From positions 1-15,970 of the forward strand of contig JBHHXN010000120.1 in NCBI GenBank assembly GCA_046757025.1: 15,970 nucleotides of DNA, written 5' to 3'. The stretch comes from a bacterium. GTDB lineage: Bacteria; Zhuqueibacterota; Zhuqueibacteria; Oceanimicrobiales; Oceanimicrobiaceae. The notes under the pieces were generated by a model. It was not told where the DNA came from, searched no databases, and saw only the letters and a list, made by a program, of their open reading frames with translations. Shown here piece after piece: positions 2,717-9,416 of the stretch (the first letter of the stretch is position 1; every line of letters starts with the position of its first letter). The position numbers and the translations under genes are program-made.

Positions 2717-4084
2717 ATGAAATATTCAGGTAATCACTTCTTGGGTTGGGCTATTTCGCAAGGATTACGAGTAAGTTTATTGCTTATCTTTCTTTTGATT
2801 GGTCCAAACACGGTTTTGTCTAACACAAATGATTTATTTGACAAAACCATCCACGAAAATCAAAGCTACGCTTTTGAATTTCTCACTTTTAAAACGGATG
2901 AAAATCAACAAACCTTTCTGGAAATCTTTTGCCAGATTCCTCTGCAAAATCTGCAACACTTTAAGTCTTTAAACGAGTATCTGGTCAGCTATCATCTTGA
3001 CATTACTCTATTTGATGAAAATCAAATAAAAACGGATGGTTTGAATTTAATAGATTCAGTGAAAGTCGAGCCGTTTAATTCCAGTTATTTGAACTCAATT
3101 CCCCATTTGGTCCGATTTACATTTCTGGTCAATCCTGGTGAATACACAGCCCGAGTTAAACTGATCGATAGAGAAACCATGTCCTTTTTTAGCTTGGACA
3201 AGGATATCACCATTCCCAACTACAGTGTAAAACGGTTGATAATCAGCGATATCCAAATGGCAACTTCGATTGCGCCATCTCAACAGGAATCGATTTTGGT
3301 CAAAAACGAAATGAAAATTATTCCAAATGTTTCACACGTATTTGGAATTAGTTACAAGACCTTGTTTCTATATTCTGAGATTTACCATCTTAAATACCAG
3401 CCGGAAGCCTCAAACAACATGTTCACGGCTACCTACACTATTTTCAATCAAGAAGGGCAGGTAGTCAAATCCCTGGCAAGAAAATATAAAAAACCGGGCC
3501 CGTCCTCAGCATTGAGCATTGGTATTCCAATTTCAGAGCTGGCCTCTGGTCAATACACCGTGACCCTCACAATCCAGGACCCCGAAAATGGTCAATCGGC
3601 ATTAAACGAAGCAAAATTTACCATTGTCAAGCCCCTCTCTGAAATATCCGACGAAGAGTATGCGACCTTAATGCGGCAATTGCAATACATCGCCACGGAG
3701 GATGAAATCGAATATCTGAAATCGCTGCCTGCAGACGCGCGCCTATCTGGATTAAATCAATTCTGGACGAAACTCGATCCGACCCAGGACACGGACAGAA
3801 ACGAATTGATGGTGGAATACTTTCAGAGAATTTATTATGCTAACCAACATTTTCAGTGTGTCAATGGCAGCGGCTGGGAAACGGATCAGGGTCAAATTTA
3901 TCTAAAAAATGGTCCGCCGGATTTCATCAAAAGTGCGTCTTCGCCAGACAAAAACAAGTCCTTTGAAGTGTGGGAATATTTTAAATTGAACTCCAAATAT
4001 GTCTTTGTGGATGAATGGGGTTTAGGTCAATTCAGACTACTAAGAACATCCAGTAAGCCTCAACAGGGCATCACACTTTTTTGA
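2717..4084 (+). CDS. GWxTD domain-containing exported protein
   Basis: Hydrophobic N-terminal signal and a beta-rich middle. The C-terminus FWTKLDPTQDTDRNELMVEYFQRIYYANQHF...GWETDQGQIYLKNGPPD...EVWEY...YVFVD matches the GWxTD domain. GGAG precedes the ATG. Confidence 0.9.
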   Translation: MKYSGNHFLGWAISQGLRVSLLLIFLLIGPNTVLSNTNDLFDKTIHENQSYAFEFLTFKTDENQQTFLEIFCQIPLQNLQHFKSLNEYLVSYHLDITLFDENQIKTDGLNLIDSVKVEPFNSSYLNSIPHLVRFTFLVNPGEYTARVKLIDRETMSFFSLDKDITIPNYSVKRLIISDIQMATSIAPSQQESILVKNEMKIIPNVSHVFGISYKTLFLYSEIYHLKYQPEASNNMFTATYTIFNQEGQVVKSLARKYKKPGPSSALSIGIPISELASGQYTVTLTIQDPENGQSALNEAKFTIVKPLSEISDEEYATLMRQLQYIATEDEIEYLKSLPADARLSGLNQFWTKLDPTQDTDRNELMVEYFQRIYYANQHFQCVNGSGWETDQGQIYLKNGPPDFIKSASSPDKNKSFEVWEYFKLNSKYVFVDEWGLGQFRLLRTSSKPQQGITLF

Positions 4085-4360
4085 GTGAATTTAGCTTAGA
4101 CCGGTATTGAGCGATTGAAACTTGAAATCCTCACAAACGGGCTGGGGGGTTTTAAAGATTGGGGATGCACGCCTTTTACCACGGCGCATGAATTGCTCTG
4201 TTTGGGTTCGGAACTGATTCAATTTTAACTTAATTTATCGAACTTATCATAGAATTATATTTTTTTTTAAGGGCGCAATTGCCTGGGCGATAAGCACGCA
4301 ATTGATTGTTCATTCATAGTTAATCAAGTTAGAAAAATGCAAGCAACAAGGAGGTTTGAC

Positions 4361-5815
4361 ATGAAAAACCAAAGTGAAAACAATTGGCGTCATAAATGGT
4401 TTCAGGGGCGAGGCTTACTGCCTGGACTGATACTATTTCTTTTTCTTGCAGTGTTCATTGCCGTTTACGCCAACTATTCCTGGGATGAAATCAAACCTCC
4501 AGAAACCGAGCTACCCGGCATGGGTAGTTGGCCGCAATTTCACGGAGATGGTGCAAATCACGGTGTATACCTCGCATCGAGCACATTTGCTCATAAACCG
4601 AAATGGTCGGTTGACGTAGGTCATGTCATTCATTCATCCCCGGTGGTAAGTGGCGACCATACCGTTTATATTGGCAACCTTGAGGGAGAGCTCATTGCGA
4701 TACATCGACTCGGTTTAGTAAAATGGCGATTGAACCTGGGCGAACCAATTACATCCTCGCCCGCGGTTTCGTCCACAGGAGTGGTATATGTCGTCACAAC
4801 ACATGCAATTGATGAAGAGGAGGATAAATATATCAGCACTTTACATACCGTTACACCTGCCGGCGTCCTGGTTCGCTCTATTACTCTCCCGGATACATGG
4901 ACTACCGCTTCGCCTAAAATCTGGCGTTCAGAAGATAATGAGTATATTTTTCTCTCCGCACTGTGGAGCTCTTTGTTAGTCTATGACCAGGCAGGCAATC
5001 TCGTAAAACATGCGCAATTTAGTGGTTGCCCTATCCATGGAGGCAGTCCTATATGGGATTGGCTCGGAGATCTTTTTGATGTGTTGAAGGAGGCATTTGA
5101 TGAATGGCCGGAATTTGAATTTGATACTGAGTGGACAGCCCCGACGTTATATGAACAATTCGGTTGGTTATATCCTACAGTTACTGTCATCGATGCGCCG
5201 GTTTTTTTCGAACATCCTATTGTGATTTTCGCGGACAATGCTTGTTTCATCAAGGCCTATAGCTGGGAGCCGCCGAAATTGACTTTTTTATGGTCAAAGC
5301 AGCACGAGATGGGTTTATTGTCATCCCCGGCAAGACTGAGAGGCACGAAAACCGTGGTCTTCGGGACTAAGGGTGGGGATGTTGTTGCATACGACATTCT
5401 GACCGGCGATAAATTATGGAAAACCGGCGTCGATGGCGGCGCGGTCATGGGCACACCGGCTTCTCGGGGTATAGGTTTACCAATCTATGTGGTCAGCTAC
5501 GACGGAACCCTAACCAGCCTCCGGCCATCTGATGGCTCTGAAATTAAAAAAATCGCGATTGAGGGAACAACGATTTCTTCACCCGCTGCTTCGAGCGACC
5601 TTGTTTATGTCCACACCAGCAAGGGGTTGGTTAGCCTTAGTTTCAACTTTGAGAGTTGGGCTGCGACTACTTCTGCTAAGGGCGGTGGCCTGGCTTCCCC
5701 GGCAATTGGCCCGGATGGAACGGTGTATGTCGTGGTAAATTCCGCCGACACGGGCATTTTGCGGGCCTACGGAGGCAATCCAATATTTGAACTATCGGGT
5801 GCGATTACAAAATAA
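4361..5815 (+). CDS. PQQ-like (BamB-type) beta-propeller repeat protein, exported or membrane-anchored
   Basis: Hydrophobic N-terminal segment, WPQFHGDGANHG, repeated SSPAV/SSPVV...VYVG-type blades and W-docking motifs (KWSVDVG, KWRLNLG, TGDKLWK). Start moved from 4337 to ATG 4361 because AGGAGG lies at 4349-4354. Confidence 0.85.
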   Translation: MKNQSENNWRHKWFQGRGLLPGLILFLFLAVFIAVYANYSWDEIKPPETELPGMGSWPQFHGDGANHGVYLASSTFAHKPKWSVDVGHVIHSSPVVSGDHTVYIGNLEGELIAIHRLGLVKWRLNLGEPITSSPAVSSTGVVYVVTTHAIDEEEDKYISTLHTVTPAGVLVRSITLPDTWTTASPKIWRSEDNEYIFLSALWSSLLVYDQAGNLVKHAQFSGCPIHGGSPIWDWLGDLFDVLKEAFDEWPEFEFDTEWTAPTLYEQFGWLYPTVTVIDAPVFFEHPIVIFADNACFIKAYSWEPPKLTFLWSKQHEMGLLSSPARLRGTKTVVFGTKGGDVVAYDILTGDKLWKTGVDGGAVMGTPASRGIGLPIYVVSYDGTLTSLRPSDGSEIKKIAIEGTTISSPAASSDLVYVHTSKGLVSLSFNFESWAATTSAKGGGLASPAIGPDGTVYVVVNSADTGILRAYGGNPIFELSGAITK

Positions 5816-5837
5816 AGAATACCTGCGTAAAAATTTT

Positions 5838-5897
5838 GCCTAACATGACAAATGCAGCCGACCCCCGTTCGTCAGCGGCTGATATGTATCGTTATAG
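5838..5897 (+). mobile_element. Integron attC recombination site (60 bp, solitary)
   Basis: R'' GCCTAAC (5838-5844), L'' AATGCAGC, CG-A-C, short terminal loop, G-CG, L' GCTGATA, 6-bp spacer, R' GTTATAG (5891-5897). L'' carries one extra base relative to L', and the unpaired A of CCGAC/GCGG gives the second extrahelical base. It lies 22 bp after a stop codon. Confidence 0.82.
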
Positions 5898-6406
5898 CTT
5901 CTCGCGACGCTTCCTGCTTTTGTTAAATTGAGTGACTGTTATGCGATGTACGCCAAGAATCTTTCTGATTTCACTGACAGAAACTTTTTTTCGACCCTAC
6001 CAAAATCCAAGAGTCTCAAAGGTTATACAACAGCTATCATTCTGATCTGTTGCCTCGAAGATTCGTCTTGTGGCGGACTGCAGCGGTACCGTCCGCGAAT
6101 TGCTGTCGTATATTGACAGTGACGATTACACAATCGGGTAAATGCCTGAAACTTCAAAAAAGGATTGCCGTAACTCTATTCACTGCTAGCCAAAATAGAT
6201 CCATTATTAAGAGAATTCGCTTGCTTTTTTTAAGCCGATGGTTTATTTTGTTTCACAAAATCGCCCTTCCTGCGTTCCATCACCATGGCTCTTTTGTTTA
6301 CAAAAGGATTAATTTTTAATCCTGCTTTCAGGAGATTTTTGGTGCAAGCAAAATAAATATACACGCCTATTAACCATCTTAAATCAATCAAAATAATGGA
6401 GGACTT

Positions 6407-7771
6407 ATGCAAATCAAAACTGTCTTAAGGATGATGAGTGTTTTGCTGTTGATTTTGTCGTTATCATGCGCTCAGCAGCCGAGCAAGTTCAGCGTGCCGG
6501 TGGAATATCACAAACTGGATAACGGTCTGAAAGTGATTTTGTCGCCGGATAAAACCGCACCCACCGTCGTTGTGGCCGTGTACTACAACATCGGCTTTCG
6601 CATCGAGCCAAAAGACCGCACCGGCTTTGCGCACCTGTTCGAGCACATGATGTTCCAGGGTTCGAAGAATCTGGGCAAAATGGAATTCATCCAACTGGTG
6701 GAAAAAAACGGCGGTGTGCTGAACGGCTCCACCCGCTTTGATTTCACCAACTACTTTGAGATTTTACCCGCTCACAAACTGGAAACCGCGCTCTGGGCCG
6801 AAGCCGACCGCATGCGCGGTCTGGCCATCACCCAGGACAACCTCACCAACCAGCAGGGCGTGGTGAAAAACGAAGTCAAAGTCAACGTGTTAAACCGTCC
6901 GTACGGCGGGTTCCCCTGGCTTGACATGCCCCAGTACGCCAACGAAAACTGGTTCAACGCGCACAATTTTTACGGCGATCTCAAAGATCTGGATGCGGCA
7001 AATCTGGAAGACGTGCAAAACTTTTTCGACACCTACTACGCCCCCAACAACGCGGCGTTGGCTGTAGTAGGAGATTTTGAGCCGGCTGAAGCGTTGGCTA
7101 TGATCAAAAAATATTTTGGCGATATCCCTGCGGCGGAACTGCCAGAAAAACCAGACATCTCAGAGCCGCGACAGGAAAAGGAAAAGCGTTTTAACAAAGA
7201 AGACCAATTAGCCAACCGACCGGCGCTGGCGTTCGCCTATCATGTACCGGAACGCAACACGCCGGAATATTACGCCATGGGCCTGCTCGACCAGATTCTG
7301 CTTCAGGGTGAAGACAGCATGCTGCATCAGTCGCTGGTGAAAAAACACGGCATGACCGGCGACGTCAACGGCGGCATCAACTTGTTGGGAAACATGTTCA
7401 ATTACAACGGCCCCATGCTGTGGATGGTTTCGTTGTTCCATGATTCCAACATCTCGCCGGATTCCATATTAAGCGCGGTCGATGAAGTCATCGAAGAAGT
7501 ACGCACCACGAAAGTGGATCAGGAAACCTTAGACCGCGCTTTGGTGAAAATGCGTTCCAGCCTGTACGACAATTTAGGCGGCTTCTTTGGATTTGGCCGC
7601 GCCGACCTGCTGGCAAGCTTCGCCTTATTCGATGACGATCCGGCCCGCATCAACACGCTGGAAGACCATTTGCAAGCGGTGACGCCGGAGCTTATTTTAA
7701 CCACCGCTCAGGAATATCTGCGCCCCACCAATCGCACTATCCTGACTTTGGAACCGAAAGCGGGAACTTGA
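6407..7771 (+). CDS. M16 family zinc metallopeptidase, catalytic subunit; probable lipoprotein
   Basis: Inverted zinc motif GFAHLFEHMMFQGS (HxxEH), NGSTRFDFTNY, distal Glu in VVKNEV, and YYAPNNA. Lipobox-like SLSC and GGAGG RBS. Confidence 0.95.
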   Translation: MQIKTVLRMMSVLLLILSLSCAQQPSKFSVPVEYHKLDNGLKVILSPDKTAPTVVVAVYYNIGFRIEPKDRTGFAHLFEHMMFQGSKNLGKMEFIQLVEKNGGVLNGSTRFDFTNYFEILPAHKLETALWAEADRMRGLAITQDNLTNQQGVVKNEVKVNVLNRPYGGFPWLDMPQYANENWFNAHNFYGDLKDLDAANLEDVQNFFDTYYAPNNAALAVVGDFEPAEALAMIKKYFGDIPAAELPEKPDISEPRQEKEKRFNKEDQLANRPALAFAYHVPERNTPEYYAMGLLDQILLQGEDSMLHQSLVKKHGMTGDVNGGINLLGNMFNYNGPMLWMVSLFHDSNISPDSILSAVDEVIEEVRTTKVDQETLDRALVKMRSSLYDNLGGFFGFGRADLLASFALFDDDPARINTLEDHLQAVTPELILTTAQEYLRPTNRTILTLEPKAGT

Positions 7772-7840
7772 TTGAGTCAAAGAAATCGACAGTACTTAAC
7801 TTTGCTAAATTTAAAAGTTCAATTAAGTTGGTAATGATAT

Positions 7841-8001
7841 TAGACTTCTGTAAAATAAAGAAAATGTTGTCATTGCGAGGAATCCCGCCAAAAGCGGGAT
7901 GACGAAGCAATCCCCTGATTTTCTGCAACTCAGGAGATTGCTTCCTCCCGCACAAAACGCGGGATTCGCAATGACGCTCAATTGTATTTTACATAAGTCT
8001 A
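7841..8001. mobile_element. MITE-like element, 161 bp, with 17-bp terminal inverted repeats and a 9-bp target-site duplication
   Basis: Left TIR TAGACTTCTGTAAAATA (7841-7857) matches the right TIR reverse complement TAGACTTATGTAAAATA (7985-8001) at 16/17. Flanking direct repeats TAATGATAT (7832-7840) and TGATGATAT (8002-8010) match at 8/9. Confidence 0.8.
7869..7975. repeat. REP/RPE-like palindromic element of the GTCATTGCGA...TCGCAATGAC type
   Basis: Outer stem GTCATTGCGA/TCGCAATGAC with three internal hairpins: ATCCCGC/GCGGGAT (7882-7900), GAAGCAATC-C-CCTGA/TCAGG-A-GATTGCTTC (7904-7944), TCCCGC/GCGGGA (7946-7964). Confidence 0.85.
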
Positions 8002-8030
8002 TGATGATATACTTAAGGAGGAAAACCAAA

Positions 8031-9416
8031 ATGTGCAAATCCATTATTCTAATTTTTATACTCACGCTTGCGGTTTGTTTACAGCCCGCCCGGGCGCAAA
8101 AGGAAACCCCACCGGCCGGCGGCACCCCCAAAGATTTTACGTTGCCAGCAAAGCAGACATTCAGTCTGGATAACGGCGTGCAAGCTACCATGGTGCCCTA
8201 CGGCAAACTACCGAAAGTCACGGTGCGTATCGTAATGCGCACCGGCAACATCAACGAAGCGGCGGACGAAGTCTGGCTGGCCGATTTGACCGGCGATTTG
8301 ATGAAAGAAGGTACGCGATCACGCAGCGCCGAACAAATCGCGCAGGAAGCCGCCAGCATGGGCGGAGCCGTTAGCGTTTCGGTGGGCCCAGACCAAACCA
8401 ACGTCCGAGGCGACGTGCTGTCAGAATTTGGCCCGAAGCTGGTGGAGCTGTTAGCAGACATCGTGCGCAACCCCTTGCTGCCGGAATCCGAGATTGAACG
8501 GCTGAAAAATGACATGCTGCGCAACCTCAGCATTCAAAAATCCCAGCCCAATAATATCGCTCTGGAAAAATTTCGTACTGTGATGTACCCCGATCATCCG
8601 TATGGACGCGTGTTCCCAACGGAGGCATTGATTCAAAGCTACACTGTGGAGAAAGTGCACTCGTTTTATGATGCCAATTTTTGCGGCGCCCGTACACATG
8701 TTTACGTGGCCGGGGTGTTCGACAGCGGCAGGATGGAATCCGCCATTCGCCGCGCCTTCGACGGCTGGAAAGCAGGCGCGCTGGCTGCTGAAAATATCCC
8801 CAAACCGGTTTCCAAACGCGTCATTCATCTGGTGGACCGGCCGGACGCCAAACAATCTACCGTACTCATCGGGTTGCCGGTCATCGATCCGGCGCACGAA
8901 GATTACATCGCGCTGCAGGTTACCAACACGCTTCTGGGCGGGGCCTTTGGGTCGCGCATTACGCGCAACATTCGGGAAGACAAAGGCTACACCTATTCGC
9001 CCTTCAGTCAAATTTCCACCCGCTACCGCGACGCGTACTGGGCAGAGCAGGCCAACGTGACCACCGAAGTCACCGGTCCATCTTTACGAGAAATCTTTTA
9101 TGAGATCGACCGGCTGCAGGATGAGCAGCCCACGGAAGAAGAACTCAAAGGCATACAGAATTACATGGCTGGCACGTTTGTGCTGCGCAACTCGACCCCC
9201 TCGGGTATCATCGGCCAACTGGCGTTCCTGGATCTGCACGGCCTGGATGAGAGCTACTTAACCGAATACGTGAAACATATTCATGCCCTTACACCCGAAG
9301 AAGTGCAGAATATGGCCAAAACCTACTTGCGCGACGAAGACATGACTATCGTGATAGCCGGGGATAAAAAGAAAATCTACGAGCAAATTTCCAATTACGG
9401 CAAAGTGGTTGAATGA
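8031..9416 (+). CDS. M16 family peptidase, non-catalytic partner subunit, exported
   Basis: M16 fold motifs (LDNG, HPYGR, LGGAFGSRITRNIREDKGYTYS with the R/Y pair) but no HxxEH. True start is ATG 8031 after AAGGAGG (8015-8021), followed by a signal peptide ending ARA-Q. The ORF-track start at 7899 lies inside the repeat. Confidence 0.92.
   Translation: MCKSIILIFILTLAVCLQPARAQKETPPAGGTPKDFTLPAKQTFSLDNGVQATMVPYGKLPKVTVRIVMRTGNINEAADEVWLADLTGDLMKEGTRSRSAEQIAQEAASMGGAVSVSVGPDQTNVRGDVLSEFGPKLVELLADIVRNPLLPESEIERLKNDMLRNLSIQKSQPNNIALEKFRTVMYPDHPYGRVFPTEALIQSYTVEKVHSFYDANFCGARTHVYVAGVFDSGRMESAIRRAFDGWKAGALAAENIPKPVSKRVIHLVDRPDAKQSTVLIGLPVIDPAHEDYIALQVTNTLLGGAFGSRITRNIREDKGYTYSPFSQISTRYRDAYWAEQANVTTEVTGPSLREIFYEIDRLQDEQPTEEELKGIQNYMAGTFVLRNSTPSGIIGQLAFLDLHGLDESYLTEYVKHIHALTPEEVQNMAKTYLRDEDMTIVIAGDKKKIYEQISNYGKVVE

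Follow-up and report, generated by a model that had tools for sequence, protein, structure and literature searches.

Loot et al. (10.1101/2022.09.11.507474) demonstrated in E. coli that IntI can insert an integron cassette into the genome at G|TT, by recombination between its attC and an attG site. Among 21,105 genomes they found 3,400 single attC sites lacking an integrase (SALINs), spread over 2,469 of them. Here, we analyze a stretch of 15,970 bp (the window), which is the entire contig C120 of a 5.96 Mb host genome (374 contigs, 94.8% complete). It holds an isolated attC site, located 22 bp behind a beta-propeller gene of patchy distribution, and this attC has decayed. The element most likely belongs to the SALINs, a described and common class. 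We propose that it is probably a single integron cassette of ~1,563 bp (4329-5891), inserted by IntI at a plain GTT site of the genome and now stranded there.

Genomic context of the locus

Both neighboring genes lie outside the cassette and on the + strand. The upstream GWxTD-domain gene (2717..4084) is a lineage-specific paralogue of a copy on contig C20 (10795-12159), with which it shares 82% nucleotide identity over about the reading frame, where the similarity ends. In the six best relatives the GWxTD gene has a conserved gene order downstream, consisting of what we take to be a phosphoesterase-like gene and two further conserved genes. In the host genome this order is kept on C20 and not in the window, which identifies the window copy as the duplicate. 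The downstream pair of M16 peptidase genes (6407..9416) is patchy, being present in 4 out of 30 relatives, in settings other than that of the window. No locus syntenic with the window flanks was found in the relatives (the six best for GWxTD, 30 for the M16 pair), and plasmids yielded no DNA resembling that of the window.

The intergenic regions 4085-4360 and 5892-6406 contain no evident pseudogene or second cassette upon six-frame translation inspected by eye, and neither a sigma-70-like promoter nor a terminator was detected on the + strand of 4085-4350. The contig end (3-467, - strand) carries a fragment of a gene resembling the res subunit of type III restriction systems, with a Pfam ResIII match slightly below the cut-off. 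Contigs from four runs of vent samples (X1-X4) were compared with the assembly. Dense intergenic differences with runs X2 and X3 are concentrated at 4120-4144 and 6360-6377, in near-identical surroundings.

A genuine but worn attC site

The attC site (5838..5897, + strand, 60 bp) directly follows the propeller gene in the same orientation. It opens with R'' GCCTAAC (5838-5844), a 6-nt spacer and L'' AATGCAGC (5851-5858), and ends with L' GCTGATA (5878-5884), another 6-nt spacer and R' GTTATAG (5891-5897), where the crossover is expected after G5891. R'' fits RYYYAAC and its AAC pairs with the GTT of R'. After GTTA, the resident R' deviates from GTTRRRY and it pairs with R'' at 4/7 positions. 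Six of the seven L pairs are formed, and two extrahelical bases (5854 and 5861) are both unpaired with 6 bp between them. The R''-L'' spacer counts 6 nt instead of 5, a version also found in three of the sites from relatives, and the extrahelical bases are situated at distances of 9 and 16 nt from the R box, each one more than at C197:1225. Synthetic sites are reported to tolerate, or even to profit from, a shift of both bases to exactly these distances (PMC7439510), so the 6-nt spacer is no defect in itself. The R'' at C197:125 is the exact complement of the resident R' in the window, which we treat as a coincidence.

As proposed in the initial annotation, a covariance model was run on the window, and it confirmed the site. 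The model was made of 11 unrelated attC sites, leaving out the host genome and seven viral sites found by a window-derived pattern. It ranked 5838-5897 above everything else in the window, with 24.1 bits and E=0.0011 over 40 kb (E-values being rough). At genome scale, 25.7 bits gives just E=0.068 and 24.1 bits alone is not significant. A profile scan trained on 18 attC sites from outside the host genome ranked the site second among 15 genome matches with a score of 47.2, above the best scores in two resampled genomes (25.1 and 37.9). The window contains no second attC at E<=1, two or more being the CALIN criterion, and no Rfam match. To our knowledge, Rfam holds no attC family. Aligned with eight other sites (seven from relatives and one viral site found by the window-derived pattern), the attC shows 76% mean column identity, and by this alignment it probably groups with a subfamily of short attC sites known from the host's family. 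An origin of the short type outside the lineage was considered and abandoned in view of the sites found in relatives.

The attC is thus real, yet the label 'canonical' given to it initially was too generous, since it is worn and weakened. For its bottom strand, the computed folding energy is -7.4 kcal/mol, a z-score of -1.06 (31/200 shuffles are equally good), and the lowest-energy fold has the correct register but makes up 2.7% of the ensemble, with the apical stem open and the apical loop unpaired. Two intact control attC sites reach -15.5 and -17.4 kcal/mol (z -3.66 and -3.97), while two further relic-like sites have z-scores of -1.58 and -0.73. An A occupies one L' position of the window site at which all eight other aligned sites keep T, and the L box is short of one pair.

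Variation among the vent runs was taken from the listed differences (40 out of 55) and pieces (28 out of 32). Among these, runs X1-X3 have no change inside the attC. In run X4, a contig of depth 4.2 is changed at 5841 and 5843, by which the AAC of R'' is lost, amid 17 differences in 160 nt; as its depth is low, sequencing error is possible. A second contig of this run, of depth 6.8, is changed at 5876, 5882 and 5884 on the L' arm. The differences listed for the propeller gene comprise no indel and 18 coding substitutions, 9 of them silent and none creating a stop, a pattern that gives a weak hint of constraint.

The predicted left boundary of the probable cassette

The predicted left junction G|TTAGAA (4328..4334, + strand) begins 33 bp before the ATG at 4361 and would represent the original R' core of the cassette after insertion. 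The coordinates in the initial annotation are all correct. Its observation that R'' pairs better with GTTAGAA (5/7) than with the resident GTTATAG also holds: the computed circle junction folds at -8.9 kcal/mol vs the -7.4 kcal/mol of the resident site. Seven GTT words occur in 4085-4360, and the one at 4328 is the sole one that matches the complement of R'' at five positions in a row; a non-contiguous 5/7 is reached by three others. Within the propeller gene, two GTTAG words match this complement at 6/7 by chance. Genome-wide, 78 of 2205 long ORFs (3.5%) have GTTAG at most 60 nt upstream, and with such a low background the position counts for something.

In the same genome, a 7/7 partner is found at the expected place for C197:1225, C93:1481 and the lone site on C101. 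The partner on C212 reaches 5/7, as in the window. No partner lies close to the start of the gene on C58 or C71, and a further two sites are located at contig ends. The placement of the left junction relative to the gene is the same at C101 (7/7) and C212 (5/7). In relatives, 8 out of 21 sites have a 7/7 partner near the gene start or at an upstream attC. Given its 5/7 match, the left boundary in the window is likely but weaker than at typical control sites. Contigs of runs X1, X2 and X3 span both cassette ends, which excludes a mis-assembly; run X1 may be the source of the assembly. An empty site, a circle (joint 5891-4329) or any other joint was not found in the contigs of the four runs, which belong to one study and drop rare variants. 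From the claim of true cassette boundaries a plausible left junction therefore survives, and the predicted circle found no counterpart in these contigs. Searches with the left flank in 20 family genomes gave nothing beyond E=0.02, and the right flank does not show, by eye, the CRGM motif of attG hotspots.

The propeller gene and its product

The cargo gene (4361..5815, + strand) is preceded by an RBS-like AAGGAGG (4348..4354), 6 nt before the ATG, and a second in-frame ATG lies ahead at 4337. It encodes a PQQ/BamB/YxaL-like beta-propeller of 484 aa with Pfam PQQ_2 above cut-off. The predicted structure is a propeller (pLDDT 75), for which Foldseek returns 8-bladed designed propellers, YxaL and BamB at 14-22% identity. 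Hydrophobicity indicates an N-terminal hydrophobic helix at residues 19-37. A lipobox cysteine is absent, the first cysteine being residue 223, and all five full-length homologues with an aligned N-terminus carry a lipobox-like cysteine there. On the basis of its fold, we predict a propeller that is exported or anchored in the membrane and serves for binding or as a scaffold, with no enzymatic role. Our guess is that its gene is transcribed by upstream read-through and uses its own RBS.

Close homologues are few: the best four have 41-61% identity, and more full-length ones exist. The gene was found in none of 20 family genomes and none of 166 other genomes of the phylum, and the viral contigs carry no propeller homologue. 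Because the propeller family is patchy, orthology to BamB is not implied; the missing lipoprotein cysteine signal and the lack of the gene in the 166 phylum genomes do not fit BamB either. With a GC3 of 0.46, the gene falls at the 6th percentile of 1509 ORFs (median 0.57), and horizontal acquisition of the cargo is supported.

Two homologue loci could be read, L042 (47% identity) and L043 (59%, from a Gammaproteobacteria MAG). Neither has an attC at E<=5, both adjoin ordinary genes in an operon-like manner, and the L043 genome (just 1.6 Mb) has no IntI above cut-off. At the contig start (L042:1-170), the region surrounding the homologue's start codon recurs in reverse complement, probably a fold-back assembly artefact. 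The two loci speak against an established cassette family, in a sample of two. Synteny and vertical inheritance of the gene in relatives with no attC had been named as refuting the cassette reading; the gene was not found in the family and phylum genomes searched, and the two homologue loci are free of attC.

The initial annotation had called the cargo large, and its coding sequence of 1,455 bp is well over the medians of 362 and 575 bp given for cassette coding sequences (PMC5371416). The annotation overstated the point, since ORFs of 533, 736 and 862 aa are found in 3 out of 21 attC-ended units read in relatives. The cargo is large, yet not exceptional for the host's family.

Integrase and attC sites elsewhere

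Neither intI nor another att site is present on the 15,970-bp contig, and there is no adjacent intI or attI as in a complete integron; the description as a single gene that ends in an attC and lacks a nearby integrase is upheld. The proposed search of the whole genome gave 7-9 attC-like sites and, for the integrase, just a dead fragment. No IntI in the host genome reaches the TIGR02249 cut-off, which is exceeded in 14 of 30 relatives. The fragment (C47:9775-9918) consists of 48 residues with 65% identity to the N-terminus of a relative's IntI and has an internal stop; the remainder of the integrase is missing. It continues (C47:9775-9960) into the end of a small ORF, which in several relatives (L024, L026, L029) is located behind intI. 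Recombinases on C300 and C96 were rejected as integron integrases, with scores far under the IntI cut-off. Considering this dead fragment, the weak attC and the lack of an intact intI in the assembled host genome, the suggested mobilization in trans is unsupported. An intact intI may reside in the unassembled part of the genome. Nothing supports present mobility of the cassette.

The genome-wide covariance search scored 150 of 929 candidates and missed both 5838-5897 and C197, so attC counts here and in relatives are lower bounds. A clean lone cassette (C101:1810-2784) with an HNH gene and a 7/7 left boundary is located directly downstream of an acyl-CoA dehydrogenase gene and is a better SALIN example than that of the window. 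Lone attC-like sites with non-consensus bases after GTT occur at C212:7197-7801, C58:26065-26196 and C71:11539-11668, the last being uncertain because its profile score falls inside the shuffle range and it has no covariance-model match. Two-attC arrays are found on C197 (125-1352, at the contig start) and C93. The latter follows an attI-like platform extending into C14, with no intI match upstream. This platform of ~220 bp has no adjacent integrase and occurs in three copies in the host (C14:1-260 overlap-joined to C93:1-55; C173:5674-5894; C14:8226-8427) and in one copy in relative G012 (L090, G012:C6). Behind it, C93 and C173 share a nearly identical short first unit with a degenerate attC and then differ in the genes that come next, namely a split YaaC-like gene and a 448-aa ORF.

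Dispersed attC sites were detected in three of five relatives scanned, with at least 15, at least 7 and at least 5 matches. A candidate at L081:1681 (14.5 bits) was rejected as it appears, by eye, within coding-type sequence. Seven viral contigs (L054-L060) carry attC sites, at least four of them several, which agrees with the reported presence of integron parts in phage genomes (PMC9892861).

Discussion

We propose that a circular cassette recombined, via the folded bottom strand of its attC, with an attG site of the genome that lay downstream of the duplicated GWxTD gene and ahead of the M16 pair. The left junction of such an insertion would read G|TTAGAA and the right one G|TTATAG. Afterwards, the integrase of the host itself would have lost its catalytic part, and the attC would drift as the reading frame stays open.

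Other histories have to be weighed. The 60-bp element might be a chance hairpin or terminator-like sequence and no attC at all. Its modest folding z-score and a model score that is not significant by itself at genome scale would fit, but four boxes and both extrahelical positions are all in register, the mean column identity with the eight other sites is 76% and the profile score exceeds all shuffled matches, so that we give this idea very little credence. Alternatively, the cassette could be all that is left of a larger array or attI platform from which the integrase and the other cassettes were deleted, GTTAGAA then being a decayed attI or attC end. The host does have two-attC arrays, an integrase-less platform in three copies and an intI destroyed by deletion, and both genes flanking the cassette are non-syntenic. 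Upstream of 4328, however, neither the covariance model nor the profile scan finds an attC-like match, the region 4255-4340 has no significant likeness to the regions around intI of 10 relatives (15/200 shuffles are equally good), and the left flank does not match the platform. We regard this history as unlikely.

It is likewise improbable that the attC is genuine and the propeller gene not its original cargo, having arrived by another route or replaced an earlier cargo, with GTTAGAA a coincidence. The operon-like, attC-free setting of both homologues, the 5/7 left boundary and the lipobox-like cysteine retained by homologues and missing in the window protein would be explained. The 22-bp distance from stop codon to attC and the GTTAG-RBS-ATG layout, on the other hand, are those of real cassettes in this genome, a chance GTTAG at that position is rare, and the readable homologue loci number two.

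Insertion of a single cassette at a genomic GTT thus remains the reading we prefer. A more far-reaching version is conceivable, though doubtful: a chromosomal lipoprotein gene family would have been newly packaged as a cassette here, dropped at a genomic site and be undergoing domestication, with the integrase dead, the lipid anchor gone, successive stages of attC decay in the vent populations and the gene intact. If so, the birth of a cassette and its fixation could be followed at this locus as a time series in nature. As a single case, the window adds one more SALIN. It is also a natural example of a predicted end state, in which the cassette outlives its integrase and the attC erodes in coexisting populations as the gene stays open. 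If further homologues prove to be cassette-free, the locus would also become a tractable case for how chromosomal genes turn into cassettes.

Compared with known systems, the product has the fold of BamB and YxaL (TM-score by query 0.55-0.60) and an N-terminal export or anchor helix. It differs from them by an identity of 14-18%, the absence of a lipobox cysteine and a low-confidence acidic helical insertion (residues 225-267). With CALINs and complete integrons (Cury et al., PMC4889954, as described in Loot et al.), the locus shares the attC anatomy, and C93 and C197 are of that kind; the window differs in having one attC and no adjacent attI, Pc or intI. In comparison with SALINs, the insertion point in the window is inferred, the attC folds weakly and the CRGM hotspot motif is missing. 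Like a SALIN, however, it combines one coding sequence having its own RBS with one attC, lacks an integrase or second att site nearby, and has GTT at both predicted junctions, fitting the GWT consensus.
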